The position numbers and the translations under genes are program-made. From the IMG/VR virus record IMGVR_UViG_3300029258_002996: a stretch of 64,000 nt of DNA, one strand, 5' to 3'. Below the pieces are notes generated by a model. That model had not been told where the DNA came from. It worked only from the letters and a program-made list of their open reading frames with translations, and ran no database searches. Source of the DNA: a virus. Positions 1-17,733 of the stretch are shown here, one piece after another; the stretch's first letter is position 1, and every line of letters starts with the position of its first letter.

Positions 1-1056
1 CGCATCCAGAGTATCGCCTGCCCAGTACGCAGCGACGGCGTTCCCCGCCATGCCCTCGTCGTAACCCTTCTGCATGAGGTAGTAGGTCACGTCATCCTTG
101 GTTGTGCTTTCCTCGTCAGAAGGGGTGTAAGACCAGAACTGAGCCCGGAGGCGACGGCGGACGAGCTTCGGATCCAAGTTTGCGTGGCGCTCAACAGTGA
201 AAGAGACGATGGGCTCCAACGGTGTGGAGAGATCGACACCCTCCATCAGGCTCGCCAGATCCGCAGCCATGTTCGGAGCCGCGTCCATCCCGGTCGGCTC
301 GACCACGTTCTGCTGGAGGCACGTCAGAGTCAGCTCGTGCATCTGGGTTTCGAGCCTCTCGCGCTTCATCCAGCTATCATCTGAGTTCATTTGGGCTTCG
401 TCGATGGCATCTTCGAGATCGAGCAGCTCACGAATCTTGGCAATCGCTTGAGGTTCGAGCGGATCCCCGACGAATCGAGCAAGGTAGTCCTCGATGTCGC
501 ACCAACCCCAAAACGCTTTCTTCTTTTTGGCTGAGATCACGATGACCGCAGCGGCTTCGGAGGAGGTGGCTTTCATCCGCTCCAGATTGAGCATGTCGAG
601 GTCGTACATGATCTTGTCTTTTTGGCGGTACAGATCGTTGATCGGTTGGTTCTCAGTCTCCTGCATCCCCAACTCGAAGTAGGTCTGGAGCATCGCAGCG
701 GCTTCCTCTTCGAACTGAGTGCCTTTGAACGACATGAACCAGTCCTCCCACTGCATCGAATCGAAATAACCTTTTTTCCGCATCGCCTGTACCTCCGCAG
801 CAGCTCCTTGACCTAAAGTGCCTTTTTCGGACTCGTAAAGATCCACGGCTGCGTTACTCACGTAGTTCAAAAGAGCGTCGGAGCCGTCAAGCTCTTCATT
901 CTCCCCTTGTAAATTATCAAGATCAACGGGAACATCCGTCTCCCATCCTAAGCTTCCGTGCTCGGACACATTGACGTGATAAGAATCCGGGACATCGGAC
1001 GGTGAAACCGTCACGTCGTAACCCCGGATAAGCGTGGTGTAAGTGTCCTGTCCCAT
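1..1056 (-). CDS. Acidic putative head/internal protein, runs off the left edge (3'-truncated)
   Basis: ATG at 1056 just after the TAG of the upstream gene; frame reads open (MGQDTYTTLIRGY...) to position 1; contains SAKKKKAF and RRRLRAQ linker-like motifs; missing from the ORF track because there is no stop in the window. Confidence 0.75.
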   Translation of the reverse strand, partial: MGQDTYTTLIRGYDVTVSPSDVPDSYHVNVSEHGSLGWETDVPVDLDNLQGENEELDGSDALLNYVSNAAVDLYESEKGTLGQGAAAEVQAMRKKGYFDSMQWEDWFMSFKGTQFEEEAAAMLQTYFELGMQETENQPINDLYRQKDKIMYDLDMLNLERMKATSSEAAAVIVISAKKKKAFWGWCDIEDYLARFVGDPLEPQAIAKIRELLDLEDAIDEAQMNSDDSWMKRERLETQMHELTLTCLQQNVVEPTGMDAAPNMAADLASLMEGVDLSTPLEPIVSFTVERHANLDPKLVRRRLRAQFWSYTPSDEESTTKDDVTYYLMQKGYDEGMAGNAVAAYWAGDTLDA

Positions 1057-1058
1057 CT

Positions 1059-3929
1059 CTACCAGTTCTGCGCTATCGCGAGAAGAACGTCCTCGATGAG
1101 CGCCTTTGACCCCTTTGCGATGAAGTGAGGAAGCTCTTTCAACAGCTCGTCCGCGCTCCACTCCCGGAAATGGTACTCCTCGCCGTTGCTGAGCTTGATG
1201 TCGATTGAAGGGAGACTCGGATCGTAATTCACTTCACCGCCAGCAGCACGCTCGGATTCCGCACGCTCGATGTACTGCTGGACCATTTCGTCTTCCGATA
1301 CCTGAGCCCCCCGTCGATCAAAAGGGCGCTTATCCCCCTTCTTCGAGGCGCTCTTTTCTTCATAAATAAACTGCTCCCAAACACCTTGATTGCCTCGAAG
1401 AGACTCCAAAGCATCTTCGAAGATTTCCTGCTGCTCCTCCTCATCTTCAGGGCGTGGCACCTCATCGTAAGGATGCGAGTTCGCTATGGCGGACTTGAGG
1501 TGTACGTAAGTCACCGGTTCCGTATCCGCAGCACCTTCCATAATGTAGTCGTACAGTTGTTCCCGAAGCTCGTCGTCCTCGTAGACAAAATCCTCGAAAA
1601 CAGGGACAGTATCGATCAGATGCAGTTCGGCAGACGGAGTTAACTCTGCGACGTGAACGCCGAGATTTGCATCGAACAGGTAACCGCTGTAGACCTTCTT
1701 GATGCCTTTAGGAAGAGAAGTCCAGTATTCCGTATCGTCCATCAGGTAGATACGAAGATCCATCATCTTCTGCTCTTCTTGAGCCTTCTTCTTCGAGGCG
1801 CTTTCCACTTCCCATCCTTCTTCCGCTTCCCCTACCGCGCCTCCGCTAACCAAAGTCTCCCTACCAAAGGATTCGAAAATACTTTCGTTCCCGCAAGCAT
1901 TTCTTTGAGCCTCTTCAAGTGAGTCATATTCCGCCGCTTGACCTCGATCATTAGTATAAGAACTTAAAGAACCGGGACGAGACACATACATGCCGTCTTC
2001 ATTTCTTTTAAGCACGTACTTACCTACTTTCTTCGAGGCGATCCTCTCCGTCCCCGGGCGCATCCGTCCTCGGTTGCTGCCGTAAGGATTGATGATGAAC
2101 CCATCGTTTGTCAGGTGGACCATCCAGTGATGCGACGAGCAAGTGGAGAGCCTCTTCAGGATGTAGTTTTTCTCGACGTGCGCGTAGGAACGCGGGAACG
2201 TGTCGAGACCTTCCTCCTCGGCCTGGACCATGTCCCCGAGAACCAGATCATAACCGGGCGGAGTGAACTTCTGAAGCTCGGGTTCACGCTTCGAAGTGGG
2301 GTCGAAGGGATCGAACTGCTGAGCTTTTTTATCCATTTTATCACCTGCTTTTCTAACGCCAGTTACGTACTCAGCGATGATTCTCGCCGCGAGCTTACGA
2401 CCCGTTGCCGTCTGCATTCCGGACTGACCCACGTAGGTCACGAGATCCTGAGTCAACTGATGCCAGTCGATTTCCTGGTCCGGGTAGATTTGCATCGAAA
2501 GAGGTCGCACGGCATCATAGACCATCGAGACCTGCTCCTCGAAGGTCGGAGGAGCAAGAGAAGCTTCGATGTAACTCAACATCTCAGGTTGCTGGACTAC
2601 CTGGTTGTACATATCCGCAGTGGGAGTGGCGGCTCCGTACTGAGGTTGGGTTTGTTCTGTCGGTGCATAGATGTCCGTCTGCTGCACCATCGTGGGATCC
2701 GTAGCTACGTCAGGACGACCGCCCTGCTCGGGAGAGAGGACGCGAGTTTCTTGAGCTTCCCTCTTAGCCCACATCTTCTTGAAGGTCCTCGGAAGCGGCT
2801 CGATATCATCTACCGTCACCCGGTATTCCATTCCCTTGGCATTGACAATCATCGTGTTCGCGTCCGGGTCCAACTCGACAATCTTTCCTCGGATGGAACC
2901 ATCGAGACCGTTGAACTTCACCGAGTCTCCCGCTTCAATGGGAGTTTTGGTGTTCGGGTACATGAGGTGTGTCGGCGTAACCTCGGGACTCTCCTCGTCC
3001 GAAGGGGGCTCCGAAATGTCGGTGTTGATCTGAGCAGACCTCTGAACTCCCTTTCCCTTCTCAACCACCTCGACAATCGATTCCTCGAACCCGGAGGTCT
3101 CCATGCCCGTCGCGGGATCGATCCCCGAAAAACCGGGCTTGCCGCCCCACAGCTCGGGGTGACGTTCGGTGACGATGGCGGTCGTGAACTCGCCCGGGCT
3201 CACCTCGTACTGAACGAGATCCCCGATCTCGTAAGGAACACCACCAGGCTCCTGCCCCATCATGGGAAAGAGTTGCTCCTCTTTTCTCCGGTAGGTCCTC
3301 CGGTTGTAGTTTTCGTCCATCGGAACGCGCCGAGGTTGATAACCCATTTCGTTTCGTCGCTCTACCGCGATGTCGAGTTCCTCCCCTTGGTTCGGGGCTT
3401 GGTATTGCCTCCGAAGGGGATCCAGAAAGTACGAGCTATTGCGACGGATGATCTCGTCGATAGCCCCTTGTCCGAGAACGTACAGTCGATCCTCGAACAT
3501 CATCGTCGAGGGGGGAACCACTGCTCCGGATACTACGGGCACAAAAATCGTCGCATTCCTAACAGCACCTGAAGTCGTCGCAAAGCGGAGATTGAAGAGC
3601 AGCTCACCAGAGACGAGCTGGGATTCGTCGTGCCTGGCGTACTTGAGCTTGCGGGCTTGGCGGAACTCGACCCTCGGCACCAACGGCCAGTCGAGGACGT
3701 TCACCACTTCCTGCGTGGCAATCGCAGCTTCCTGAATGTAGGCGTTCAGATCCCGCACTCCAGACTTCATACCGACCTGCTTGACCTTGGAAAAGATGTC
3801 ATCGAGATCGACTTTCTCCGAAGTCTTCGTCATCTTCTGCCGCATTGCGGCCATGCGCCTGTCGTAATCGTCGAACAGAGGATGTTCGGCAACGTGCTTT
3901 TTTTTCTTCAGTTCCTCAAAAGTCGGCAT
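1059..3929 (-). CDS. 956-aa modular acidic protein, putative virion head polyprotein (two SH3/KOW-like modules plus acidic modules)
   Basis: Long ORF with a GAGG RBS; modules separated by RSAQ, KREAQ, KKAQ, KKKAQ, RRGAQ; YEIGDLVQY and IEAGDSVKF starts resemble KOW/SH3 barrels. Confidence 0.7.
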   Translation of the reverse strand: MPTFEELKKKKHVAEHPLFDDYDRRMAAMRQKMTKTSEKVDLDDIFSKVKQVGMKSGVRDLNAYIQEAAIATQEVVNVLDWPLVPRVEFRQARKLKYARHDESQLVSGELLFNLRFATTSGAVRNATIFVPVVSGAVVPPSTMMFEDRLYVLGQGAIDEIIRRNSSYFLDPLRRQYQAPNQGEELDIAVERRNEMGYQPRRVPMDENYNRRTYRRKEEQLFPMMGQEPGGVPYEIGDLVQYEVSPGEFTTAIVTERHPELWGGKPGFSGIDPATGMETSGFEESIVEVVEKGKGVQRSAQINTDISEPPSDEESPEVTPTHLMYPNTKTPIEAGDSVKFNGLDGSIRGKIVELDPDANTMIVNAKGMEYRVTVDDIEPLPRTFKKMWAKREAQETRVLSPEQGGRPDVATDPTMVQQTDIYAPTEQTQPQYGAATPTADMYNQVVQQPEMLSYIEASLAPPTFEEQVSMVYDAVRPLSMQIYPDQEIDWHQLTQDLVTYVGQSGMQTATGRKLAARIIAEYVTGVRKAGDKMDKKAQQFDPFDPTSKREPELQKFTPPGYDLVLGDMVQAEEEGLDTFPRSYAHVEKNYILKRLSTCSSHHWMVHLTNDGFIINPYGSNRGRMRPGTERIASKKVGKYVLKRNEDGMYVSRPGSLSSYTNDRGQAAEYDSLEEAQRNACGNESIFESFGRETLVSGGAVGEAEEGWEVESASKKKAQEEQKMMDLRIYLMDDTEYWTSLPKGIKKVYSGYLFDANLGVHVAELTPSAELHLIDTVPVFEDFVYEDDELREQLYDYIMEGAADTEPVTYVHLKSAIANSHPYDEVPRPEDEEEQQEIFEDALESLRGNQGVWEQFIYEEKSASKKGDKRPFDRRGAQVSEDEMVQQYIERAESERAAGGEVNYDPSLPSIDIKLSNGEEYHFREWSADELLKELPHFIAKGSKALIEDVLLAIAQNW
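1338..2040. repeat. Three in-frame copies of TTCTTCGAGGCG (minus strand encodes ASKK) at 1339-1350, 1789-1800, 2029-2040
   Basis: Identical 12-mer (15 bp identical for the first two), spacings 450 and 240 nt. Confidence 0.85.
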
Positions 3930-3932
3930 CGA

Positions 3933-4283
3933 TTACCTCGGACTTTGTCTAGGTATGGGTTGAGTCATCGGAGAAGGAGCCGGATTTCTAATCTTACGTC
4001 TCCGATCTTTGTCGTTCTGTCTTTGTTGGTCCCGAGTCGTTTGTACCGGCTCCGAGCCAAACGGATTGTCCACTCCGATAATCAAGCTGGATTTTACTCT
4101 TATGTTTGCATAACCGCCCGATTTCTTGGGATTCCAAAACGGAATCTCGTCATTCCCGGATCGAATATCGGCCCACAGCTCGTCGATTGTCTTATGCTCG
4201 CACAACACCGAAAACGTAGCTCCGGAACAAAACAAACGATACGGGTACAGAACCTCGGGAATTTGAACCAAGCTCGACATCAA
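3933..4283 (-). CDS. Hypothetical protein
   Basis: 116-aa ORF fitting between flanking genes, with a 4-nt overlap to the upstream gene. Confidence 0.7.
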   Translation of the reverse strand: MMSSLVQIPEVLYPYRLFCSGATFSVLCEHKTIDELWADIRSGNDEIPFWNPKKSGGYANIRVKSSLIIGVDNPFGSEPVQTTRDQQRQNDKDRRRKIRNPAPSPMTQPIPRQSPR

Positions 4284-4852
4284 AGCTCATCCTCGATCAA
4301 TGCGCGAACGATGTTGTCGGACCTTCGTTCATGCTCTAAATTTCGGTCGTCGATTTCGGAAAAAGCGAAAATGGCGATTTTGTCTCCGGGGCTCACTTCA
4401 TTCAGATCGCAAAATCCGCCATTGACTTCGATCACTCCATCGCAATTTCGGCAGCCCCACCTCTCCTTCGAGTTGACCTGAGTATTTCTCTGGACTTTGG
4501 AAACAACGCTATCTTTCAGGAACAACAGGTCTAGGGGGAACTTCACGGATCCTTGATGGAACACGACATCGTGATATCCCGGATAGGGGAAGTACAGACC
4601 GCAATCCTCCGGCAGACAATCGTAGTTTTGCAAGCCGACTCTCTTCTTTTCGAGGGTATCGGCGACATCGCAATGAACTTTGATCGATTTGTCCAGCCAC
4701 ATCGCGGTGACGTGGGTTACCGGAACAGGTTTGAGATCATCCGTCAGTCGCACAACTCCGGCTTCGAACATGTGGACATGCGGCGGCCCGTCCCAGTTGA
4801 TCAGGAGGCCGTAGTCCTCTTCGAACTGCCGTGCGTGCAACTTGACCAGCAT
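4280..4852 (-). CDS. DUF192-family protein
   Basis: Motifs VADTLEKKRVGL, LPEDCGLYF, FPLDLLFL, VIEVNGG..GDKI typical of DUF192. Confidence 0.8.
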   Translation of the reverse strand: MLVKLHARQFEEDYGLLINWDGPPHVHMFEAGVVRLTDDLKPVPVTHVTAMWLDKSIKVHCDVADTLEKKRVGLQNYDCLPEDCGLYFPYPGYHDVVFHQGSVKFPLDLLFLKDSVVSKVQRNTQVNSKERWGCRNCDGVIEVNGGFCDLNEVSPGDKIAIFAFSEIDDRNLEHERRSDNIVRALIEDEL

Positions 4853-5256
4853 TACTTCTTCCGAGTCTTCCTCGTTTTCTTGGACTTCTTCTCTTTTGGA
4901 GGCTCGGGTTCCTCTTTCGGCGCAGGCTCCGTCTCCGGCTCGGGTTCCGGAGAGGCTGCTTTCTTCTCGGCCTTCTTCGGCTTCTCCTCGGAATCCTTCT
5001 TCTCAAAGAGCTTAGGCACCCTCGAATGGAGCATATGCAGCAGCTCAGGCTGCTCCTTCAGGTCCGCCACGCTCATTCCCGTAAGCTCAACCAGATCCAC
5101 CGAGGACTGCTTCGTCACCACCACCGGAATCGCAGAGGAACGTAGCAATCTGCGTTTCTTGTGCCGAGACATTTCGTCGGGAAGGTCCACTTTCGGATAG
5201 AGCGTGAAGCTCACCGAACCTTGACCCGGGTTGAAAACTACGAATTTTTCAGTCAT
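4852..5256 (-). CDS. Hypothetical protein with K/E/P-rich low-complexity tail
   Basis: 134-aa ORF, AAGGAG RBS. Confidence 0.75.
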   Translation of the reverse strand: MTEKFVVFNPGQGSVSFTLYPKVDLPDEMSRHKKRRLLRSSAIPVVVTKQSSVDLVELTGMSVADLKEQPELLHMLHSRVPKLFEKKDSEEKPKKAEKKAASPEPEPETEPAPKEEPEPPKEKKSKKTRKTRKK

Positions 5257-5268
5257 GAATCTCTCCTT

Positions 5269-8200
5269 TTATTCAAAAAGGGCCGACATCGATTTGTTCT
5301 GCGGAAGACCGAACAGCTTGCGGGCGTCCGACAGATTGAGCCCCAGCTCCAGGAGCAGACGACGGGATAGCTCGGCCACCTTCTGCGTGGTTACTTGCTC
5401 CGGGCTCGTAGCGTTCACCGGCATCGACTGAACTTCTGCCAGAATCTGAAACGCCTGCTGCTCGGCGGGCATCTCCTTCGGCATCCCCTCCCCGAACTCA
5501 GGCATCGGGGCCGCAGGTTGGGTTAGCGCGGGAGTCTCTGGAGCTGCGGGAGCTGCCGGGGCCATCTGCGCCCGGCGCTTGTCGATCTTTTTCTGGATCA
5601 GGAGCGCCATCCGCTTGGCGACCGGGGGCGACACCGCAGGTCCCGTAGGCGCGGCAGGAGCCGGTACCCCAGGCCCCGGAGCCGATGGGCCGGGCGTGGC
5701 TGGAGCAGGCCCCGGAGCCTTCGGGGCACCTGGCATCTGTTTCTCGGGACCTTTCTTCTTGGTCCCGGGCTTGTTGAGCTTGATTTCGAGGACCTTCTTC
5801 TTGTCCTCGTCATCCATCAGCGAGATGTCCTCGGGAGTCCACCCGAGAGCCTGGAGACCCTCGTCTCCCGTTCCCGGAGACATTCCGGGGGCCTTGGGGG
5901 CTCCTGTAGCGCCGGGAGCCTTCGGAGCACCAGGAGCGGCTGGAGGAGCCGCAGGAGCAGGTCCGGGAGCCGGAGCGGTAGGCGCCGGTGCGGGAGCAGC
6001 CGGTTGGGCCATCGGAGCGGCGGCTTGGGCCTCGCGCTTGGCGCGGATCCATGCCTCGCGGCGCTTCTTGCGACCGGCTTTTCCCTTCAGTCCCTTTGGA
6101 ATACCCATCGGGCCTTTGCCTTTCCCCCGCATCTTCCCTTCACCTTTGCCCTTGGGAAGCTTCTTCTCCGGCTTCGGCTTGGTGACATCCCCATCCTCGG
6201 TGAGCTGCTTCCCGTACTCGCCCGCGTAGCCCTGCCAGTACTCCTTGGCGGATTCGTCGACCGCTTCCATCTCGCCGCCAGCAGAATTGCCATACCTACC
6301 TACTTTATTGTTTTCACGAACTTCCCATTCATCCTCCGGACCAAAGTCACTTGGAGGATCGTAGTCGGAACCTTCCTCGTCCAGAATACGACGCAATCTT
6401 TCAGGAGAAACAATCTGAACCATGCGACCGAGATCTTTATCGTATCTATGAGTAATCTCTGATGCTTCCATCTCGCCGCCAGCGGACTCTTCCTTCTTGG
6501 AGCTTGGGCACCCGGCTGCGGCTTGGCGAGATTCCTTATCCCAGCCTTGTCGCTTAACGTACTCTTCGTACTCCTCACGGTACTCCTCGTATTCTTCGAG
6601 AAGTTCGTCAGCTCCATCTGTCATGTACATTTCGAAAAGGTAGTCCAACGCATCCTCTTCTGTATCGAAAACAGACAAATCAGTTCGATCCATATAGCCA
6701 GGAGCGGACATGTAAGCGCCGTAACCTTGACGAAGCTCGATATCGTGAATCTCGCTATTCTCCAGATAGTCTCGAAGGGAAGTCCCCTCGACGCTCGCCC
6801 TCCCATCTTTCTCGATCTCCCGTTTCAACTCTTCGATCTCTTCTCCATCGACATACTCAGCCGAAACAGATTCACCACCCATCGGACCATCTACCTCAAC
6901 CCACTCACCATGTTCAACGAAAGGCTCCATGAACGCGGCCTGCTTCCGAGCCTGAACGGCAGGAGCTTGCTCCATCGGAGCCTGACCTTCTACCTCACCC
7001 GAGCCGGTCGGTTCGCTCCCTTCCTCGGGTTGAGCTGGGCGAAAAGGGCTCCAGTCCACCTCCTCCCCGCCAAACGCCATCGTCAGGGCGTGAAGCTCCT
7101 CGGCGGACTCGGCCTCAATGTCGCGACCGTAGCCGCCCTCGGGAGACCACTTCTCGCGAAGCTTGGGGCCAGCGACCTTCCAGTTGATCGCGCCAGGCTT
7201 CAAATCCCCGTTCCCGACGAGCATCCAAGCGAAGTCTTTAAGATCGTCGAGCTTGAACTCATCAACTTCCGCAACGAGCCGCGAAGCAATCTTAATGAAG
7301 TCGTCAGTGACATCCAGATCACCGCGCAAGATGGAAGCAATCAACTCGGACTTTTTCTTCTTGTCTTTGCCACCCGGAGTGTAGCCCTCGCCCTCCATCC
7401 AGTTGGCCAACGCCCATGGGTTGTCGATCTCGGGATCTCCCTTCATCTCCTTGACCGTCTTCTCCCACTTCTTCGGAACCTTGGCCTCGGTGTTGCCACC
7501 GGCTTCATCCATCGCACGGCGAGCGTGGCGCTGAGTCTTCTCGGTCGGCAGGAACACGTTGTTCGCAGCCCACTTGTCCGGATCCATGATGTCCCGGAGA
7601 AGCTGCTCGCTCGGACGTGCCCGTTTCATTTCCCGGTAGATATGGGAAGCATCGGGGGGTGAGTCGAAGGAGTCGACGATCTTGGAACCTTCCCGCTCTT
7701 CCCCTAAAAACTTGGAAATGAGCATCGGCTGAATGCCGGAAACGTCTTTGTAGTCAGTACGCATCAACTCAGCAGCGTGCTGCATCGTCTTGGTATACAA
7801 AGGTTCTATACCAGGGATCAGTAAGATGTAGTTGTAACCTTTTTCCTGCATCCCACGAGCGACCTCCTCTTCGTCCATCGCCCTGCGACGACCTTCCTTC
7901 TCATCTCGCAGATCCTTGCCCTCACCCTTCTCCTGGTCGATGACCTTCGACGGATCCGAGGGAGTCTCGCCCTTGTTCAGGTTCTTGCCAGGCTCCTCCT
8001 GGACCTTGACCTTGAAGGGGTCTTTACCGCCGTCTTCGGCACGGCGACGAGAACCCTTACCCGGGTATGAACGAAGTCGATTCTCAAAGGACGTCCAATC
8101 TACCGGACCTTTTGGAGTATCCCAATCGGGATTCTCTCCAGGAGCGGCGATGAAATAATCAGACCACTCCGAGATTTTTCCGTTTTCGATTACGACATTA

Positions 8201-8850
8201 TCCAAATTTTCGGGAGCATTCTCGACTAGGTCCCCTAAAGTCCCTATGTAGTTGGATTCATCGTCGTATACTTCTAATTCCGACCAATGAATTCCCGATT
8301 CGGCTCGGCGACGAGCATCCTTTTCGTTCCGCATCCTTCGATCACCCCAGTTTGTATCCGCGCCACCGGTATCCTTCCCGAGACTCGTGTCCGGAAGACC
8401 GCCACGTCCTTCGTCCTGTCGAGGACGCTTGTTGATGGCCGGGTCGAAGTTTCGAGGATTTCGATCCGAAGTATCTGGACCGAGCCGTGGGTTCGAGGTC
8501 GAAGTACCCTTCGAATCCGTCCCCTTCGGAGTCTCGTTCACGGTCGGATTGTACTTTGGATATTCCTTGGTCGAGGTATCCTTTTCGAGAACTTCGGCAG
8601 GCGAAGGAAGGCTCTGAGAAGGTCCTTGCGTCTCGTTCACACCCGGGATGGGCATGTCGGCTTCCTTGCAGAACCGGCGCACCTCCTCATCGAGTCGGCC
8701 AATATGGGTGGCGAAGCCATCGCCCTCGGGTGGCCAGATCTCTACATCGTCGTTGTCGTTGATTCGCATCAACCAGCCGCCAGGATTCTCGACAGTCTGA
8801 CCGTCAAAGAGTGCGCTCTTTACCTGCCTCGGATTCAATTCCTTTGCCAT
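5269..8850 (-). CDS. ~1190-aa modular protein, putative head/scaffold-cargo polyprotein with Pro/Ala-rich C-terminal region
   Basis: Probable start ATG 8850 (GAGGA RBS, MAKELNP); linkers RRRAE x2, RRRAM, RRAM, RKQAA, KREAQ, KRRAQ. Confidence 0.72.
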   Translation of the reverse strand: MAKELNPRQVKSALFDGQTVENPGGWLMRINDNDDVEIWPPEGDGFATHIGRLDEEVRRFCKEADMPIPGVNETQGPSQSLPSPAEVLEKDTSTKEYPKYNPTVNETPKGTDSKGTSTSNPRLGPDTSDRNPRNFDPAINKRPRQDEGRGGLPDTSLGKDTGGADTNWGDRRMRNEKDARRRAESGIHWSELEVYDDESNYIGTLGDLVENAPENLDNVVIENGKISEWSDYFIAAPGENPDWDTPKGPVDWTSFENRLRSYPGKGSRRRAEDGGKDPFKVKVQEEPGKNLNKGETPSDPSKVIDQEKGEGKDLRDEKEGRRRAMDEEEVARGMQEKGYNYILLIPGIEPLYTKTMQHAAELMRTDYKDVSGIQPMLISKFLGEEREGSKIVDSFDSPPDASHIYREMKRARPSEQLLRDIMDPDKWAANNVFLPTEKTQRHARRAMDEAGGNTEAKVPKKWEKTVKEMKGDPEIDNPWALANWMEGEGYTPGGKDKKKKSELIASILRGDLDVTDDFIKIASRLVAEVDEFKLDDLKDFAWMLVGNGDLKPGAINWKVAGPKLREKWSPEGGYGRDIEAESAEELHALTMAFGGEEVDWSPFRPAQPEEGSEPTGSGEVEGQAPMEQAPAVQARKQAAFMEPFVEHGEWVEVDGPMGGESVSAEYVDGEEIEELKREIEKDGRASVEGTSLRDYLENSEIHDIELRQGYGAYMSAPGYMDRTDLSVFDTEEDALDYLFEMYMTDGADELLEEYEEYREEYEEYVKRQGWDKESRQAAAGCPSSKKEESAGGEMEASEITHRYDKDLGRMVQIVSPERLRRILDEEGSDYDPPSDFGPEDEWEVRENNKVGRYGNSAGGEMEAVDESAKEYWQGYAGEYGKQLTEDGDVTKPKPEKKLPKGKGEGKMRGKGKGPMGIPKGLKGKAGRKKRREAWIRAKREAQAAAPMAQPAAPAPAPTAPAPGPAPAAPPAAPGAPKAPGATGAPKAPGMSPGTGDEGLQALGWTPEDISLMDDEDKKKVLEIKLNKPGTKKKGPEKQMPGAPKAPGPAPATPGPSAPGPGVPAPAAPTGPAVSPPVAKRMALLIQKKIDKRRAQMAPAAPAAPETPALTQPAAPMPEFGEGMPKEMPAEQQAFQILAEVQSMPVNATSPEQVTTQKVAELSRRLLLELGLNLSDARKLFGLPQNKSMSALFE
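6263..6483. repeat. 20-bp perfect direct repeat GCTTCCATCTCGCCGCCAGC (6263-6282 and 6464-6483), 201 nt apart, encoding AGGEMEA
   Basis: Directly visible; in frame; flanks a ~59-aa module. Confidence 0.9.
8035..8314. repeat. 16-bp near-perfect direct repeat TTCGGC(A/T)CGGCGACGA (8035-8050, 8299-8314) encoding RRRAE
   Basis: 15/16 identity, 264 nt apart, in frame. Confidence 0.75.
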
Positions 8851-8891
8851 TTTATTCCTCGACCTTCCTTTGTGAAAAAGGTTTTTAGTTT

Positions 8892-9953
8892 TTATTCGAA
8901 ATCCTCTTCGTCGTCCTCGAAACCCCTCAACCACAGCTTCGCTTCAGGATGCTCGGACGCTCTCAGAGTTTGAACAAAATCCTCAAGTGTATCAAACTCT
9001 TCAGACCAGTATTGCCACCCTTCGGTAATCGCGTTCATATAAGCTTCTTCAATCTGGTATTGATCTGCGTCGGGACCGAACTCTTCCCTGATTTCGTTCC
9101 AGAGACCTTCGTCCAACTCTTCGGAAAGTTTGTCATTGAAGAAAGCGTCATGAGCCTTTTCAAGACCGTGATCGATACCCCGTCCCGTAATGACGACGTA
9201 GGAGTCCGCCTCCATCTCGTCGCCGTCATAAACCCCAACTACGGAGACGGGGGAATCAGCATCTTGGGGGTAGAAAACGTCTTGATCGACGATGTCCTTG
9301 ACTGGATACTGGCTGAGGAGAGCGTCAAGGTTGGCTTTCTTTCTCCGACCCTCACGTCCGAAGTCCTCTTCGTCGTCCTCGAACTCTTCTTCCTCGGGTT
9401 TGTCCCAGTCCGTGTCGTACTCTTCTCCAAAGAGTTCGTGAACCTCTTTGTAATTGAGAGTGAGTGGGTATTGGTCGAACTCGAAAGGTCCGAAGTACCA
9501 AATAAGATCTCGATAAGCCTGCCCACGTTCGGCAGGGTCGTCCGACTTCAATTCGTTTACGAGTTCTTCTTTAGAAGACCCTACACTATCGGCAACCCCT
9601 TCCAAATCCTTCGCCCAGAAAGGTTCATCAAAGCGGGAAACTCCTCGATTAAATGTCAAGGCAACGTCGGGAACTAGATAACCGTCGATCTCCGCGAACT
9701 TCTCGATGTCAAATCGAGAGATGGTCCAGGTGGCTTGGTACTCGTTCTCCGCATCTGGATTCCAGTCCAGATCGTTCTCGACGTACCAGCCTTCGGGACC
9801 GTACTGGGTCTGGACAATCAAGAGACCGCCGTAGTCAATGAAGTTCACATCTCCGAGATTGGCGATAATGTCAGGTTTGTCACTCTTGCCTTCCTGAGCT
9901 TTGACGTTCTTGGAGATCCTCTTCAATGCTTCGTCAGGGAGTACTTGTCTCAT
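8892..9953 (-). CDS. 353-aa very acidic two-module protein (putative head cargo)
   Basis: Short basic leader ending NVKAQ, module 1, linker GRRKKAN, module 2; D/E-rich. Confidence 0.72.
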   Translation of the reverse strand: MRQVLPDEALKRISKNVKAQEGKSDKPDIIANLGDVNFIDYGGLLIVQTQYGPEGWYVENDLDWNPDAENEYQATWTISRFDIEKFAEIDGYLVPDVALTFNRGVSRFDEPFWAKDLEGVADSVGSSKEELVNELKSDDPAERGQAYRDLIWYFGPFEFDQYPLTLNYKEVHELFGEEYDTDWDKPEEEEFEDDEEDFGREGRRKKANLDALLSQYPVKDIVDQDVFYPQDADSPVSVVGVYDGDEMEADSYVVITGRGIDHGLEKAHDAFFNDKLSEELDEGLWNEIREEFGPDADQYQIEEAYMNAITEGWQYWSEEFDTLEDFVQTLRASEHPEAKLWLRGFEDDEEDFE

Positions 9954-12319
9954 CTTTCCAACCCCTCTTCCTCGCGCATTTCGGCAAGGTCGTTCAGAAT
10001 TTCGAGCAGCTCAGGGTCTCCCGCGTAGGCCAACTCCGTCTCCATTCCCGCAGTATGTGGGATTTCCAACCCGTGATGCTCGTGACTGTCGTACCACCCT
10101 ACTCCGTGACCCATTCCCTCCATCGCGAGGTAGTGACCGAACTCGTCGCGGTTGAAGTCCTCATCCTCACCAGGAGGAATGAAGGTTTCCAGGTCGACGT
10201 TGTTGGAGCGCTCGATATCTCGGTAGAAGTTGGTTGCAAATTCGATAGCTTCGGGTGGAGTCTCCGGGGCAATGTTCATCAACTCGGCCCCCATGAAGTT
10301 CGGGGACTCGATTTCGACATCCACTTCATCGGCAAGGCGGTCAGCCTCCTCCCATTCGTCTGCCCACGAAGAGACAAAGAAGGCGCGAGCCATCGCTTCG
10401 ACAATAGTAGGATCCGGTTCACCCGCTTGAGCTTGACGACGAGCCTCGTGTCCAGGAGTTCCGAGAAGGTTTAACACATCCTTCAAATCCCACAAAAGCT
10501 CCGTACCTTCATCCAGAGCTTCCCGGTATTCCCTTTTCTTTGATTCATCCGCGACTACGTCAGGTTGCTTGATATTCACCTCGTACCATCTAACCGCGTC
10601 CTCAAGCTCCTCATGCGCGGCTTCGATTACGTCTTTTTCTACCGGATGCCCTGCGGACCAGTTAGATCCCAGCGCATAGAGTGCAGATCCTTGCCCTCCG
10701 TGCCATTTGAGAAGATCTTCCGCAAGCCCCCGATCTGGCTTGATTTCTTCTTCTTGAGCTTGACGACGAGATCCCCTCCAAGCAGGACCCCAAAGCTCAC
10801 CCTCGGGGGGTTCCTCTTCGCGGGAGGGCTTGTCCCAATCGAAATCCTCGACGAGGTGGAAGTTCCCGTGATCGGAAACGTGCCAAATATTTGGCCAATA
10901 CTGTTGACGGTTCCCCTCTTCTCGAATGGCATCTTCAATGCCATCCCACTCGACAAACTCTCCAAGATGCTTTCCTGCGAAGTAGACATCTTCGCCCCCA
11001 AGATATGAAGCGGACTGGATGAAAACATCATCTTCGTCGGGCTCAAAATCGTCTCCCTGAGCTTGGCGACGAGCAACCGCTCCAGAACCCATCCCGCCAT
11101 GACCAGGACCAGCTTCAGGACCCGCCTGCGCTTTACCTTTTCCTACCTGACCAGGTCCGCGCTTGGGTTTCTTGACTTCGTGGAGAGATTCTTTTTCAGC
11201 TTGCTGCTGAGACTGAGGTCGAGGGGGAAGGGAGGGATCTGGTTCGAGACCGAGGAGATCTCCCATTGCTTCACCCGGACGCATGTTGAGCGCAGGATCT
11301 TCCCCTAAAGGATCCGAAGGGAAGTAATCCTCAAGAGGATTCCAAGTAGCCCATTCGGGTGCCCCGCTCATCGCACGCTCTTCTTCGGGACTTAACCATC
11401 TCTGTGAAGGATCCGAAAATGTTTCTTCCGGTGTTTTCGCGAATGGCGCATCCTGCTGCACCGTTGCAGGTCCTCGCGGAGTCTGAATGTACTTGACGCC
11501 CGGTTCATTGCCGGACGCCTGAGCGTCCCTACGGTAAAAAGGGCGCTTCCCACCCCCTCGACGAGCATTCGGACCTTGACGCTTGCGCTTGGGGGGAGGA
11601 TTCTCCTTACGGAACTCCCCGGAATCACCACCCCCGACCTCGTGCTTGATCTTCTTCTGCACCCAGTCGGCAGTCTCCTCGCCATATTCCAGGTCAGGCT
11701 CTTCCCCGTTTACCATTGAAAGAACAAACCGGCGAGCCTTTACCTGATGTGGGAGAGGACCGTTCAAACCGTGCTTTAGGATCAGACGGTCGTAGTCTTC
11801 CTGAGTTTCGATCTGAGAGGCGATGCGCTGGAGGTCGTTGATCGGGAGAGTCGCGTAACCTTTCTGACCGATTTCGACGATCACCTCCGCCGCCGCCGAC
11901 TTGGGGAAGTTCCGTTTGTAGTGATCGTGGAGCGTGAGGTAGGAGCTGGCAGTAATGGACCCGGTGCGGTTCTTCTTCCACATCCCCTCCAGATGACCGT
12001 ACAAAGCCCGAAGACCGTGATCAGTCCCGAGGTCCTTGCGCGCCTTCACGATTCGATAGGCGTCGAAGACGGAAGCTACGGGAAGATTTCCGTTGATCTG
12101 CCCCGCTTCTCGATCAAGCTCCTCGGCGATCTTCTTCCGAACCTGCTCGACATGGGGAATATTCAACCGGAACTCCCGGGAATTCGCCTCATCTTGAGCT
12201 TGACGGCGAGCGACGGCTCCCGAGTAGAGTTTCGCAAGCCTGCCGACTCGAAGATCACCGACAGATTGCTGGGAAAAATCCGCGAGGTCCTGTTTGACGT
12301 TACGCCCGAATCTATTCAT
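9950..12319 (-). CDS. 789-aa modular protein with four RRQAQ and one RRDAQ linker (putative head polyprotein)
   Basis: GAGGAG RBS; three C-terminal acidic modules each begin immediately after RRQAQ. Confidence 0.75.
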   Translation of the reverse strand: MNRFGRNVKQDLADFSQQSVGDLRVGRLAKLYSGAVARRQAQDEANSREFRLNIPHVEQVRKKIAEELDREAGQINGNLPVASVFDAYRIVKARKDLGTDHGLRALYGHLEGMWKKNRTGSITASSYLTLHDHYKRNFPKSAAAEVIVEIGQKGYATLPINDLQRIASQIETQEDYDRLILKHGLNGPLPHQVKARRFVLSMVNGEEPDLEYGEETADWVQKKIKHEVGGGDSGEFRKENPPPKRKRQGPNARRGGGKRPFYRRDAQASGNEPGVKYIQTPRGPATVQQDAPFAKTPEETFSDPSQRWLSPEEERAMSGAPEWATWNPLEDYFPSDPLGEDPALNMRPGEAMGDLLGLEPDPSLPPRPQSQQQAEKESLHEVKKPKRGPGQVGKGKAQAGPEAGPGHGGMGSGAVARRQAQGDDFEPDEDDVFIQSASYLGGEDVYFAGKHLGEFVEWDGIEDAIREEGNRQQYWPNIWHVSDHGNFHLVEDFDWDKPSREEEPPEGELWGPAWRGSRRQAQEEEIKPDRGLAEDLLKWHGGQGSALYALGSNWSAGHPVEKDVIEAAHEELEDAVRWYEVNIKQPDVVADESKKREYREALDEGTELLWDLKDVLNLLGTPGHEARRQAQAGEPDPTIVEAMARAFFVSSWADEWEEADRLADEVDVEIESPNFMGAELMNIAPETPPEAIEFATNFYRDIERSNNVDLETFIPPGEDEDFNRDEFGHYLAMEGMGHGVGWYDSHEHHGLEIPHTAGMETELAYAGDPELLEILNDLAEMREEEGLER
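10426..12210. repeat. Four copies of an 18-bp repeat CTTGAGCTTGACGACGAG (10426-10443, 10753-10770, 11056-11073, 12193-12210) encoding RRQAQ
   Basis: First two identical, others with 1-2 mismatches; all in frame. Confidence 0.88.
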
Positions 12320-12421: not shown

Positions 12422-12724
12422 TTACAAGGCTTTGCCGATATCTCGCATCAAGTGAACCTTCCCGCACTCCAAGCATTTGATCTCTAAAGGTAATGTACCA
12501 AAGATCGTCTCCATCTGCGCGGAACAACATGGACTTCGAACCTCGTCACAATCGTCTTCGTCCTCGACGCAGGGATCCCCCTTGTCCTGATCTTCCTCTT
12601 CGGATTTACTCTGCTTGGCCCGTTGGAAAAGCTCGAACAGCTCTTGGACTTTTTCCTTGTTCAGATTTTTGAGGTTCTCGGGGACGTTCTCCAGCGCTTG
12701 CTGGAGTTCGGGAGGAAGGCTCAC
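12422..12724 (-). CDS. Small protein with C-terminal Zn-ribbon-like Cys motifs
   Basis: SPCC...KCLECGK. Confidence 0.65.
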   Translation of the reverse strand: MSLPPELQQALENVPENLKNLNKEKVQELFELFQRAKQSKSEEEDQDKGDPCVEDEDDCDEVRSPCCSAQMETIFGTLPLEIKCLECGKVHLMRDIGKAL

Positions 12725-12727
12725 GGA

Positions 12728-13603
12728 TTACTTCCGGACGTTGGAAGGGGAGAGCTTGGCGGGTACTACAGACACCCAAGCAGAGCCGTATGCCCCATAG
12801 TAATTTTCCCAATAAGCCGCAGCTACATCGTCCACTCCGTTCTTCCTCATCCAGGCACCCGCCATATCCGCCTTGACGCGCTTTTTCACGTCCTGAACGA
12901 GATCTTGGCCGTACAGCCCGTAGTACTCTTCGTAGTACGATTTGGCTGCCTCGTCCACCGCGATTTTTCTCGAACTGGCGTCCGCGAAATCGCGGAAAAC
13001 TTTCGAGACCTTCTGCGCGATTCCCCCATGTTTCAGAAAGGCTTCCCGGACCCGTCCCAGCTTCACGAGATCTACCGTCTCTCGCAGCACAGCGGGGGGA
13101 ACATCCTTACAGGTGTTGAGAACGTCCTTCGTCATGATGAAGGGAAGGTTCAAATACTTTGAAGCGCTTCTCGTCCGGATGCCGTCTGCAACCGACTGAC
13201 GAATCTCTTGCACGGTTTCGGATCCGTAAGCTCTGCGCAGCTCTTCCCAGCTCGGAACGCGGGGAGACTGCTCCCTGCGGTCAGACGCATTGAATCGACG
13301 CACCACCGCCACGGGGATGTCCGTAGAGAAAGTGGAGTCGTCTACAAGGTCGGCTCCGAAGAGACCCCACATCGCGGCGCAGGTATCCTTCGCTTCCTGC
13401 TTCCGCTTGGCTTCGTCACGACGCTTGCTTGCAGCTTTCAGCATCGCCCGACGTTTTTCCTGCTCGAAGCTTTCCTTCTCCTGCTTACTCCGCCGAAGAT
13501 GGACTCGACCATCCTCGCCCCTTCCGGCGGACCACATGTGGTGCGCATCTCTTCGGGGATTTTCGGAACGTCGCATTTCGTTTGCCTCCATGTTTCGTCT
13601 CAT
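12728..13603 (-). CDS. Putative head-associated protein with two Tyr-rich VDxxAxxY(W/Y)xxYYGxYG repeats
   Basis: Repeat shared with the 5269-8850 protein; first copy preceded by the linker RKIA. Confidence 0.65.
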   Translation of the reverse strand: MRRNMEANEMRRSENPRRDAHHMWSAGRGEDGRVHLRRSKQEKESFEQEKRRAMLKAASKRRDEAKRKQEAKDTCAAMWGLFGADLVDDSTFSTDIPVAVVRRFNASDRREQSPRVPSWEELRRAYGSETVQEIRQSVADGIRTRSASKYLNLPFIMTKDVLNTCKDVPPAVLRETVDLVKLGRVREAFLKHGGIAQKVSKVFRDFADASSRKIAVDEAAKSYYEEYYGLYGQDLVQDVKKRVKADMAGAWMRKNGVDDVAAAYWENYYGAYGSAWVSVVPAKLSPSNVRK

Positions 13604-14884: not shown

Positions 14885-15331
14885 CTAATCCTCATCCGTA
14901 TCGAAAAACTTCTTGACGTAACCCTCCAAACTGAGCAACGCCGGGGGAATGTACAGGAGCGCCGGAGTATCCGAAGTCTCTGGTTTCGTAAATCTGATCT
15001 GATCTACGTATACGTGAAGGTTCTGCCGGAGAACCGACAACGTCTGCTCATTGTCCAGATTGGAAACCTTTTGCAAATCCTCCTCGGAAGGTTCTTTCGC
15101 GGCGTGTCCGTCAAGAACTTTCATATCCCCCGGCATCGGGACTCCGATCACCTCATCCACCCAATGACAATCCCGGTACGGGTGCGTACCCGCAGAGCGG
15201 ACGGTCATCTGGAACTCTTCTTCGGTCATCACATCGTCCGGTGAGCCGAACGACGGACACTCACCCGGGCAGCGTTTCGTCTTCTTGATCAGATCGACTG
15301 CCCAATTCTTCCACGCTTGTTTCATCGGCAT
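14885..15331 (-). CDS. Hypothetical protein
   Basis: ORF overlapping the trigger-factor stop; start chosen at ATG 15331 (or 15325). Confidence 0.6.
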   Translation of the reverse strand: MPMKQAWKNWAVDLIKKTKRCPGECPSFGSPDDVMTEEEFQMTVRSAGTHPYRDCHWVDEVIGVPMPGDMKVLDGHAAKEPSEEDLQKVSNLDNEQTLSVLRQNLHVYVDQIRFTKPETSDTPALLYIPPALLSLEGYVKKFFDTDED

Positions 15332-16586
15332 CTGTCCACTTGATCCTTTCCATAACGTCATCGATAAACTCCGCACCACCGGGATCCACATCGTACTCAC
15401 TCCCGTACCAGAGCATCGCTAGACGTTGCATGTAATCTCGGTAAATCTGACCTTTGAATCTATTTCGAAACGATTCTTCATCGGTCACCCCGACCGCCAA
15501 CATCGCTTGCTTTTGATTTCCCCGAAATCTATCGAGGTGCAAGTCGATCATCCGGTCGATGTTCTTTTTCAACCATTCTTGAGGCAGCGGTGGTATTGGA
15601 GAATTTCGGATAATCTGTCCAAGAATATGATCGGTAGCGGTCGCTTGCTCGGCGTTCGTCTTGTACCTTTTGTAATCTTCAACGAACTTTTTCCGAAAAG
15701 CTTTCAGATCATCAAAACCCGCTTTCTTCGCAAGATCATCGTCGACTTCCGGATAGTTCACGATTTTTATCTCATGAACTGTGATCTCGACCTGCACGGT
15801 TTTCCCCAAAACCTCGGGGTCGTGTTTCGGCTCGAACTCCAGCTCGAACACGTCCCCCCTCTTGTGCTCCAGTAAAGCTTCCTGGATTTCAGGCACGACC
15901 ATTTCCCGCCATTCAATCCATTGATCTCGGATGGTGCCGTTGGGGTAAGGTTCTCCGTCGATTTCCGCGAGAATCGTAAGATTCAGATCGTGGTTCTCCT
16001 TGATCTGATCCTCACCTTCAGGAACTGCTACATGAGTTTTCTGATCTGCTTGAATTTCCTTGCAGCGACGTTCCCACTCTTCCTTCTCGCTCAAAACCGG
16101 TGGATAGGGACATGCAAAGTTGATCTCCTTTTTCGGTTTCAGCTTCGGAGTGAAGTAGACGACGGCCCCCAACTGAACTTGCTCGCCAGGTTCGAAATTG
16201 AAAAGCTCATAACCGTCAATAAACATAATTTCATCGTTGAGATGATCATGAATCTCGTTGATCAGAACCTCTGAGTACAGGCGCTTGACGCCGATCTGCT
16301 TCTCGACGATCTTGCGCGCATTTCGCGCTTTACCGCCCTTTTGTTTTTTACTCTTCGCCAACCGGGAAAGCTTCTTCTCGTTCTTCTCCCAGAACAAGTC
16401 GAACTTCGCCTTCAAGTCCTCGTAGTAAAACCAGCAGACGAGCCGATAAGGCTGCGCCAAGGGCTCGACTACGATAGGGGGGAGGGGCTCGCGCTCGGAC
16501 TCCTCCTCCTGCTCTGCACCAACGCCCTCTTCCTGGGCATCCTCAGTAAGGTCGGACGATGATTTCTGTTCGAGGTTCTCCGTCAT
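15261..16586 (-). CDS. tig: Trigger-factor homolog (N, FKBP-like and C domains), divergent
   Basis: 441 aa; IDGEPYPNG, LGKTVQVEITVHEIK, YPEVDDDLAKKAGFDDL match the trigger-factor pattern; GFRxGxxP absent. Confidence 0.8.
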   Translation of the reverse strand: MTENLEQKSSSDLTEDAQEEGVGAEQEEESEREPLPPIVVEPLAQPYRLVCWFYYEDLKAKFDLFWEKNEKKLSRLAKSKKQKGGKARNARKIVEKQIGVKRLYSEVLINEIHDHLNDEIMFIDGYELFNFEPGEQVQLGAVVYFTPKLKPKKEINFACPYPPVLSEKEEWERRCKEIQADQKTHVAVPEGEDQIKENHDLNLTILAEIDGEPYPNGTIRDQWIEWREMVVPEIQEALLEHKRGDVFELEFEPKHDPEVLGKTVQVEITVHEIKIVNYPEVDDDLAKKAGFDDLKAFRKKFVEDYKRYKTNAEQATATDHILGQIIRNSPIPPLPQEWLKKNIDRMIDLHLDRFRGNQKQAMLAVGVTDEESFRNRFKGQIYRDYMQRLAMLWYGSEYDVDPGGAEFIDDVMERIKWTDADETSVEELGSRSDQEDETLPG

Positions 16587-17010
16587 AATCCATATCTCCT
16601 TTAACTACCTTTCTACTGTGCTCCTCACGTACCAAACGATCATCTTCGATAACTACGGCCACCTTCATTCTACGGTTCCCGCGAACCGGGACCCCCTGCA
16701 TCGCATCAAAGATGAATGCGGGGAGATTGTCCAAATCGGGCTCATGGACCCGCTCTACATAGAATACCAAATCGACCGAAATTAGATAACTGATCGGTCT
16801 CCGACCCCCTTGTTTTTTGAATTGCCGATGGAGATCGACAGATGCCGCATCCCTCGCCGCGCGCATATCGGCGGAGTGATCGACAAAAGGCCCAATCTTT
16901 CTGCGGGGATTCCGGTACATAATCTCCAGATTGTTTTTCTGGACCCAAGATTTTCCCAAGATCAAAAATTTATAGGTAGGACGCTCTGGAAAATGAATCG
17001 GGCGGACCAT
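16543..17010 (-). CDS. RusA-like Holliday junction resolvase
   Basis: PDLDNL...DAMQG...EDDRLV acidic motifs. Confidence 0.75.
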   Translation of the reverse strand: MVRPIHFPERPTYKFLILGKSWVQKNNLEIMYRNPRRKIGPFVDHSADMRAARDAASVDLHRQFKKQGGRRPISYLISVDLVFYVERVHEPDLDNLPAFIFDAMQGVPVRGNRRMKVAVVIEDDRLVREEHSRKVVKGDMDYDGEPRTEIIVRPY

Positions 17011-17011
17011 G

Positions 17012-17269
17012 TCATTTGCAAACCAAGCTGTTGATGATCTGAACTACTCGATCATCTCCCCGAAACCACAGGTTCTTGACGATGTAGTCCCTTTCAATCG
17101 GACCTTGAACAAACAGTTCGCGCACCTTCCGTCCTCCGTAAGGTCCGTTAGTCAAGAGAATGTCGTCTCCCTCAACTTGGTAGCCTACGAGGTTTAGTTG
17201 CTTCTGCTGCCGTTTCGCAGCTTCGTGCGCCTTCTCGCGGCGAGCCATAGAAGCAGGTTTGTTCATCAA
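17012..17269 (-). CDS. Hypothetical protein
   Basis: 85-aa ORF, overlapped junctions. Confidence 0.65.
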   Translation of the reverse strand: MMNKPASMARREKAHEAAKRQQKQLNLVGYQVEGDDILLTNGPYGGRKVRELFVQGPIERDYIVKNLWFRGDDRVVQIINSLVCK

Positions 17270-17733
17270 TGCGCTCTTCCTATGTTCGGTGGCATGGCGG
17301 AGATAACCTCGATACCCGAATCCTGACCTTGATGAGACTTGAGCGCGCCTTCGTACTGCTGAGTGAGCATTTTATCCGAACGTCGATCCTTAGAAAAAAT
17401 GTAGATAGATTCAGGATGGACGAGCTGATAAGGGAGGGTCTGCAAGATCAAAGAAGGCTTCTGGAACGCAGGAGCAATGCCCACGGAACGACCGTCTTCG
17501 CTCTGCTGCATCGGAACTTCCGCATAGAGCAACGGCCCATACAGAACCAAAAATCCTGCATCCGGATCCGGTAAGTCGTCGATACCACCCATCATCATGC
17601 GCCCGTTCACAGTGAGCAGAGCCATGTAGGTATCTTCAATCATCGGATTGACGAAAGGAGCGAATCCGAAGGTTTCTTCGATCCACGCTCCGAAATCAAC
17701 ATCCTTTTTTTGATCTTTCCGTTCATCTGTCAT
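17266..17733 (-). CDS. Hypothetical protein
   Basis: 155-aa ORF, ATGA overlaps. Confidence 0.7.
   Translation of the reverse strand: MTDERKDQKKDVDFGAWIEETFGFAPFVNPMIEDTYMALLTVNGRMMMGGIDDLPDPDAGFLVLYGPLLYAEVPMQQSEDGRSVGIAPAFQKPSLILQTLPYQLVHPESIYIFSKDRRSDKMLTQQYEGALKSHQGQDSGIEVISAMPPNIGRAH

Follow-up and report, generated by a model that had tools for sequence, protein, structure and literature searches.

In an uncultivated phage of a ~190-kb lineage, several neighbouring genes appear to encode polyproteins in which small acidic domains are strung behind conserved N-terminal scaffolds and parted by a lineage-specific [RK]-x-A-[QEM] linker. We analysed these genes in a window of 64,000 nt from IMG/VR virus record IMGVR_UViG_3300029258_002996, namely the reverse strand of bases 39623-103622 of the 127,888-bp record, whose completeness is estimated at 71%. 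The domains, referred to here as modules, are independently folding acidic accessory domains of unannotated families that circulate among phages and mobile elements, both solo and within multidomain proteins. Modularity, free-standing homologues, shuffling between relatives, acidity, linker enrichment and the folding of two modules emerged directly from the comparisons below. The explanation that we prefer, and to which we assign an even chance, is that the linker-parted acidic domains are cut from the polyproteins and delivered with the DNA as effectors. A first-pass annotation of the same DNA had described captured counter-defence effectors in virion-packaged polyproteins, an interpretation that is partly supported by our results.

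Phage polyproteins contain discrete accessory modules

All genes of the window are carried on its minus strand. P0004 (window positions 9950..12319), a polyprotein of 789 aa, consists of an N-terminal domain (residues ~1-250), a Pro-rich low-complexity stretch (268-421) and three modules: mod5 (10754..11056; residues 422-522; WPNxW..SDHGN motif), mod6 (10427..10753; residues 523-631; WHGGQG motif) and mod7 (9953..10426; residues 632-789; AMARAFF ... FGHYLAMExMGHGVGW.D motifs). Its stop codon overlaps the start codon (ATGA) of P0003 (8892..9953; 353 aa), in which a short leader, mod4 (9339..9953; residues 1-205; NLGDVNFIDYGG motif) and a GREGRRKKA linker precede a second acidic module (residues 206-353). 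P0002 (5269..8934) is a polyprotein of 1221 aa as listed, with a GTG start and a 43-nt overlap with P0003; an ATG at 8850 (residue 29), giving ~1193 aa, seems the likelier start, because relatives align from about residue 34. It carries mod3 (6535..6933; residues 668-800; APGYMDRTD motif). In the 956-aa polyprotein P0001 (1059..3929), a conserved scaffold (residues 1-~220 and 390-634) is followed by three C-terminal accessory modules, i.e. mod1 (1779..2030; residues 634-717; YVSRPG motif), an unnamed module that begins QEEQKMM (1302..1778; residues 718-876) and is flanked by KKKA-Q and RRGA-Q linkers, and mod2 (1062..1301; residues 877-956; EEYHFREW motif).

The seven motif-bearing stretches, which the first-pass annotation had singled out as discrete, lie where it had placed them, are delimited by linkers and coincide with breaks in homology; for each of the seven we found homologues that cover that module alone. 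Module-specific matches reached E-values of 1e-26 for fused and 6e-15 for free-standing homologues, which, together with the confident folds and the linker-matched breakpoints described below, contradicts the idea that the modules are chance segments of ordinary long proteins. With nothing but the lack of annotation in its favour, this idea is extremely improbable.

Modules recur as free-standing small phage proteins

Six of the seven modules have complete free-standing homologues in other phages, encoded by small ORFs of 62-185 aa, typically in small-gene, early-like regions. The first-pass annotation had expected the module families to occur in this form, and a confinement of the homologues to the fused context, which it had named as a refutation, is thereby ruled out. 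The exception is mod2, whose only detected homologue is formed by the C-terminal region of P0087 (247 aa), located behind mod5. Mod1 shares 69% identity over 48 aa with P0163, a 62-aa ORF that is complete and lies within a run of genes for 45-89 aa, and mod4 has six free-standing homologues (P0164-P0169; 153-175 aa; 37-40% identity) that start at the module boundary. Mod3 is homologous to free-standing BcepSauron_040 (176 aa), the initiator Met of which aligns three residues upstream of a conserved Met of mod3, at the linker cut. A Met shortly after a linker had been likened to a relic start; such residues are present, and that of mod3 is conserved within the module, fused copies included.

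A full HMMER scan of 1.84 billion representatives with mod5 plus mod6 as the query returned 428 representative clusters (at 50% identity) with E<=1e-3, most of them matching mod5, the SDHGN domain. Among the 140 mod5-bearing proteins within the top matches, 38 are of <=140 aa, and the domain lies C-terminally in 44, N-terminally in 8 and internally in 50; many of the free-standing proteins measure 75-130 aa. An exact-motif scan for mod5 at the DNA level hit seven IMG/VR contigs as opposed to one MAG (metagenome-assembled genome) contig among representative genomes of 185,579 prokaryote species. In small proteins of the IMG/VR contigs L038 and L040, a C-terminal mod5 is preceded by long poly-Glu or (Pro-Glu)n spacers. 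Free-standing homologues of mod6 (P0060, P0081, P0114, P0118 and P0138) are 99-163 aa long.

Mod7 is homologous to the complete ~152-aa ORFs PspYZU01_08 and Pho57 of two Phobosvirus genomes, which lie in runs of small genes upstream of recombination genes, to the C-terminal portion of an ORF of at most 271 aa that a T7-like Ralstonia phage carries at 2.6-3.4 kb, near its left end, and to eight metagenomic proteins of 137-250 aa. Together with its free-standing relatives it belongs to phrog_15314 (P0009, E 3.9e-22, profile positions 19-162 of 163; P0008, E 1.2e-5). P0004 itself matches this profile weakly (residues 722-741, E 0.004), and P0009 is 34-37% identical to mod7; the profile describes a stand-alone protein of ~163 aa, whereas the 789-aa P0004 has the domain as its C-terminal unit. 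In P0006, a 250-aa metagenomic protein, a mod6-like domain (WYGG..DPLYA) is fused directly to a mod7 domain in the same order as in P0004, which hints that mod6 and mod7 work together.

The free-standing genes reside in runs of 40-200-aa genes in phage contigs (Phobosvirus, BcepSauron and metagenomic contigs), on a 77-kb contig that also encodes a LexA-like repressor and a DUF3560-methyltransferase protein, in an integrase-bearing element and in jumbo-like contigs that have DnaJ/GrpE; a Tad2-like gene is found ~5.6 kb away from one of the mod7 relatives. No homologues were found for P0001 residues 718-876, P0002 residues 801-886 and P0003 residues 206-353.

Relatives carry different module sets on the same scaffolds

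Three relatives, L014, L016 and L017, are syntenic with the window across the whole block, and what is conserved in syntenic relatives is confined to the scaffolds, i.e. residues 1-~250 of P0004, 34-349, 408-672 and 887-1221 of P0002, and 1-~220 and 390-634 of P0001. The N-terminal domain of P0004 is 45-64% identical in L014, L016, L017, P0014-P0017, P0025 and P0027, and 27-30% identical in Rctr197k_034; a single-protein scan of IMG/VR with this domain gave no match, and its relatives there were found with an alignment-based scan. Mod1 to mod6 are absent from the syntenic places in L014 and L016, as is any counterpart of P0003 at its syntenic site. In L011 and L014, the P0001 ortholog has 810 aa, with homology stopping at P0001 residue 634 (mod1 is absent from the orthologs in L014 and L016), and mod7 is a separate gene of 185 aa (61% identity) directly after a P0004 ortholog of 556 aa. 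The 1278-aa P0002 ortholog of L011 aligns over the three conserved stretches listed above, not over residues 672-887. P0002 residues 801-886 (window 6277-6534) hold a 67-aa segment between two copies of a GGEMEA peptide and form, with mod3, the part of P0002 that relatives lack.

Elsewhere, the same modules occur on other scaffolds. P0014, an ortholog of P0004 and not of P0002, carries mod3, mod6 and mod5; mod3 is also found in P0124 and P0070. P0027, another P0004 ortholog, has mod4 and mod5 fused, mod4 sitting in a separate gene here, and mod6 is present in P0095, a P0001 ortholog, and in P0025. These patterns support the view that the modules are variable accessory parts of otherwise conserved proteins. 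Since module sets differ among close relatives and move between scaffold proteins, the genes can be read as an exchangeable cargo rack.

Most accessory modules have a third-position GC content (GC3) of 0.39-0.58, compared with 0.65-0.72 in the scaffolds (mod2 and mod7 are exceptions); within P0001, mod1 has a GC3 of 0.39 versus 0.66-0.69 in the scaffold. This fits a recent acquisition of several modules. Capture of free-standing genes into the fused form is plausible, short of proof, because fused and split states both occur at this locus among relatives.

In P0017 (814 aa), a metagenomic P0004 ortholog with mod5, a duplicated HGxGFWD module and mod7, the duplication is an exact tandem copy of a 136-aa module together with its RRQA linker, which looks like a very recent unequal crossover at linkers. 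In P0004, the RRQAQ linkers are encoded by nearly identical DNA (GCT/TCT CGT CGT CAA GCT CAA; window 10421-10453, 10748-10780, 11051-11083 and 12188-12220), and such linker-coding DNA could provide short recombination joints for module exchange.

A short linker motif parts the modules

All copies of the linker share a core of a basic residue, any residue, Ala and then Q, E, M or A. The motif [RK][RK]xA[QEM] occurs 14 times in the polyproteins (6 copies in P0004, 5 in P0002, 3 in P0001) against 0.77 in shuffled sequences, none of 2000 shuffles reaching 14, and its density of 4.7 per 1000 aa is 16 times the 0.30 in the rest of the genome. The breaks in homology fall at these sites: in P0001, homology restarts at residue 390 (linker 389-393) and stops at 634, the start of mod1; in P0002, it stops at 349 (linker 349-353) and at 672 (linker 663-667). 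Distant orthologs likewise have modules parted by similar linkers, mostly ...[RK]-x-A-Q. A second linker type, KRPF.RR.AQ, is common to P0004 (residue 263) and P0001 (residue 872).

A motif of the linker type also stands at conserved sites in the major capsid protein (MCP) and in a scaffold-like protein of the same phages. Both are encoded at 9-18 kb of the record, in a block with genes for a portal, a head maturation protease, the 640-aa scaffold-like protein and the HK97-type MCP. The MCP site, [RK]-[DE]-A-[ML] at residues ~105-109, is kept in three relatives, Rctr197k among them, and similarity to capsid proteins of other phages begins close by, at residues 83-96. In the scaffold-like protein, RRA-[MQ] and RR[DE]A-A form conserved islands amid variable low-complexity sequence. 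This likeness supports, short of proof, a release of the modules by the prohead protease. The MCP (record 16238-17512) also has an N-terminal extension of ~100 residues, which is very basic, of low complexity, unlike a coiled-coil delta domain and of varying length among relatives.

We considered whether the linker generally accompanies fused mod5 domains and rejected the idea: in other lineages it is found in 6 of 85 mod5 fusions, which equals the background rate.

Most modules are strongly acidic, and two are predicted to fold compactly

The acidity noted by the first-pass annotation was borne out: six of the seven modules have a net charge of -0.11 to -0.23 per residue and a pI of 4.05-4.64, mod1 being milder (-0.05, pI 4.83), while the genome has a median of -0.015 and a 5th percentile of -0.087. 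The unnamed module of P0001 (residues 718-876) is at -0.13 per residue. P0002 is basic in its C-terminal part and, like P0004, in its conserved N-terminal part.

AlphaFold2 models built from family alignments point confidently to compact, folded domains for both modules modelled. Mod5 reached a pLDDT of 86 (95-97 in the core) with a beta-beta-beta-alpha-beta-beta arrangement and a low-confidence tail at the linker; mod7 reached a pLDDT of 87 and a pTM of 0.85 and is predicted to be all-alpha. Disorder, raised beforehand as a reason to discard the modules, is thus contradicted by the predictions for these two. Fold searches with the models recognised no known fold for mod5 or mod7, the ESM Atlas gave no usable match for either, and comparing the family profiles of mod5 and mod6 with PDB sequences yielded chance-level matches only (designed Pizza proteins, ribosomal uS2). 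The mod5 family has a nearly invariant W..SDHGN signature. The mod7 family has an invariant FGHYL...GHGV...D, of which the H-x8-H-x5-D spacing recurs, as judged by eye, in the paralogous HGxGFWD module of relatives' polyproteins. With their invariant His, Asp and Asn residues, these motifs look more like a specific site for binding or catalysis than like a generic charged surface.

By analogy drawn solely from charge, the modules had been proposed to be DNA mimics of the Ocr/ArdA type that block restriction-modification, BREX and the like. Mod3, with -0.23 per residue, mod7 and the second P0003 module all have a net charge of about -0.22, which we take to be within the Ocr range, mod7 is all-alpha, and a T7-like genome encodes a mod7-like domain at 2.6-3.4 kb, where gene 0.3 is located in T7. 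Against such mimicry stand the conserved His, Asp and Asn motifs of mod5 and mod7, which suggest a specific site and not a charge ladder, the size of mod5, a 65-residue alpha/beta domain too small as a monomer to mimic a long stretch of DNA, and the absence of a Pfam match to ArdA, Ocr or any other family. Ocr (T7 gp0.3) and ArdA resemble the modules in being small, very acidic phage or plasmid proteins, and a T7-like genome encodes one mod7 homologue at its early left end; Ocr and ArdA show no sequence similarity to the modules, were not among the matches listed by the fold searches, and differ by the motifs just named. We regard DNA mimicry as decidedly improbable. Acidity common to most accessory modules looks more like a constraint of the system than like seven independent DNA mimics.

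A physical constraint would also be expected if the polyproteins were structural, forming an internal head core or inner body in which the acidic modules serve as bulk filler to organise or exclude DNA, with no effector role after injection. Strong acidity in most of the variable modules suggests such a constraint, the head is large (genome ~190 kb), several large neighbouring genes have protease-type motifs, and SPN3US with its >40 MDa of internal protein is a precedent (PMC10052503). Yet a filler has no need for module sets that differ between relatives with 45-64% identical scaffolds, nor for conserved His/Asp motifs, and stand-alone homologues occur in small phages (43-58 kb) and in an integrase-bearing element. 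On this evidence, a filling role is improbable.

The polyprotein block lies downstream of replication genes

Complete relatives of the phage are 188-192 kb long with terminal repeats, and the nearest named record is the metagenomic Virus Rctr197k. Among cultured phages, there was no DNA-level match (megablast, 20 kb) and no tblastn match to P0001 or P0003. In the record, the head genes are followed by tail genes, genes for two very large proteins and a complete set for replication and recombination, after which comes the polyprotein block, in the order P0004, P0003, P0002, three small genes, P0001 and a 575-aa protein that leaves the window.

Upstream of the block, a 441-aa protein (window 15261-16586) matches phrog_26774 and is found at this place in all three syntenic relatives (43-46% identity); it could be a chaperone for the polyproteins.

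Possible release and delivery of the modules

In the explanation that we prefer, the conserved scaffold domains would carry the polyproteins into the procapsid, the prohead protease would cut at the linkers, and the freed small acidic proteins would remain in the head and enter the cell with the DNA, where they may serve as pre-made early effectors of host takeover or counter-defence. A 305-aa head maturation protease, encoded at record 12575-13492, counts in favour of cleavage at the linkers, and a counter-defence or host-takeover function is suggested by analogy and context only.

Several observations weigh against this sequence of events. About 75 kb of the record separate the polyprotein genes, which follow the replication and recombination set, from the block of head genes. 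Capsid homology with other jumbo phages begins 10-25 residues upstream of the proposed MCP site. The background rate among mod5 fusions of other lineages argues that the linker is not an intrinsic companion of the modules. In SPN3US, propeptide fragments released by the protease mostly leave the head (PMC10052503), and release alone therefore does not imply delivery. Furthermore, the lineage is without a cultured relative, and Pfam, PHROG, PDB sequence and fold searches gave neither a functional annotation for any module nor a match to Ocr, ArdA, an Acr or another characterised protein. Specifically, P0001-P0004 have no Pfam match at E<=0.1 and, in PHROG, the weak phrog_15314 match only; polyproteins of ten relatives have none in Pfam at E<=0.05, bar one sub-threshold, chance-level match in P0027; and neither the modules nor 36 free-standing homologues matched a Pfam family.

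Some of these points would suit cytoplasmic multidomain proteins of the polyvalent type that are never packaged, with linkers as flexible spacers, contacts to DNA or RNA, or sites for another protease of host or phage, and with modules acting on one polypeptide or freed in the cytoplasm. The polyprotein genes adjoin replication and recombination genes and the candidate chaperone gene, and not head genes; in most other lineages, fusions of the mod5 family lack linkers of this kind, and in P0006 the mod6-like and mod7 domains are joined directly. However, a mere spacer would not be expected to keep a five-residue motif strictly, the motif is strongly over-represented only in the polyprotein genes, and it recurs at conserved positions in the capsid and scaffold-like proteins of the same phages. 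We therefore regard a purely cytoplasmic role as rather unlikely, though with a real chance of being correct.

Relation to known phage systems

The closest known concept is that of polyvalent proteins, and the closest mechanism is head cargo trimmed by a prohead protease. Like polyvalent proteins, the polyproteins are large proteins of a mobile element made of many small domains that recur solo and in many combinations. P0004 combines a scaffold with three modules, and P0001 and P0002 are comparable, which falls within the 2-15 distinct domains per polypeptide of polyvalent proteins in phages or conjugative elements; portal, protease, MCP and tail genes mark the record as a viral contig, and the domains recur both solo and in mosaic arrangements. 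The catalogued conflict domains (methyltransferases (MTases), MPTase and other peptidases, ADP-ribosyltransferases (ARTs), ParB-like, ArdC-N, LPD) gave no Pfam match; Pfam presumably includes the LPD domains of polyvalent proteins. Nor are the genes associated with virion or late genes or with a type IV secretion system (T4SS), lying downstream of replication genes instead. In further contrast to polyvalent proteins, no embedded peptidase domain was found here, a regular short motif that matches putative head-protease sites parts the modules, and the cargo is divided among four or more neighbouring genes. Packaging into phage heads has been described for effectors as well as for polyvalent proteins (Iyer, Burroughs, Anand, de Souza, Aravind 2017, PMC5512222), and for the latter a delivery with the invading DNA has been proposed, with mosaicism between relatives as an arms-race signature (PMC5512222).

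Trimmed head cargo has well-known examples. In T4, the small internal proteins IPI, IPII and IPIII, and Alt, enter the prohead, where the prohead protease trims them at a short motif before they are injected; IPI* is an anti-restriction factor. Each T4 cargo has its own gene and an N-terminal leader of ~10-20 residues, whereas here many cargos would share one precursor; the motif is [LI]-x-E in T4 and [RK]-x-A here, and the T4 internal proteins are basic, unlike the acidic modules. The T4 internal proteins with a capsid-targeting sequence are summarised in PMC9026906. T4 and phiKZ-like phages offer a parallel to the motif shared here, since their capsid, scaffold and internal proteins all use a single short motif, and prohead proteases cut precursors of ejection proteins at multiple sites bearing the short motif (PMC10052503).

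The ejection and inner-body proteins of phiKZ-like phages (SPN3US gp53/gp54; PMC10052503, PMC5694885) are similar in that giant phages hold much protein inside the head and that several copies of a three-residue motif serve as cutting sites in the precursors; the motif is A-x-E there and [RK]-x-A here. There, a single mature C-terminal protein remains after the destruction of long N-terminal propeptides, whereas here the pieces between sites are folded, conserved domains; no homology was detected between these proteins and the polyproteins. Phage PaBG was considered as an experimental precedent and set aside, its multiply cut gp213 and gp215 being annotated as tail sheath and tail-fibre proteins.

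A tentative extension and its implications

A bolder form of the delivery model, possible though on balance doubtful, holds that protease-cleavable polyproteins are a plug-and-play chassis of the ~190-kb lineage: any small effector gene could be inserted between [RK]-x-A-Q linkers, whose near-identical 18-nt coding sequences would serve as recombination joints, and its product would be taken into the procapsid by the N-terminal anchor, released by the protease and injected with the DNA. If so, the phage would enter each cell with a strain-specific set of at least 12 ready-made small acidic effectors of unannotated families, and a DNA phage would deliver many small proteins at once and swap them fast, by a polyprotein strategy more familiar from RNA viruses. 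The linker would also predict the specificity of the prohead protease in a group of large uncultivated phages, namely a cut next to an Ala after a basic residue.

Whatever the mechanism, the analysis defines several widespread families of unannotated small domains. Their spread, i.e. solo occurrence in early-like regions, cargo-like fusions and near absence from cellular genomes in the narrow exact-motif scan, makes them good candidates for screens of host-takeover and counter-defence functions.

Further features of the block

Residues 1-23 of P0003 (window 9885-9953) and the separate mod7 gene of L011 (10001-10090) have a similar leader of ~20 residues, ..PD[ES]AL.RI..K....AQ. Both leaders stop at Ala-Gln directly before the module, with a weak fit to the linker consensus; by analogy, they could be removable targeting leaders like the capsid-targeting sequence of T4.

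Between the polyprotein genes, a DUF192 (PF02643) protein of 190 aa is encoded at window 4280-4852 and has counterparts of 50-57% identity at the same place in relatives; DUF192 was the only family found in a Pfam scan of the neighbouring genes. The 575-aa protein downstream of P0001 (window 1-1161, record 102462-104189) is a further modular gene. Its L011 ortholog has 401 aa, compared with which it contains ~170 extra residues (338-508) that hold two similar units of ~70 aa (..AYWA..TLDA..TM.IQ.AL..).

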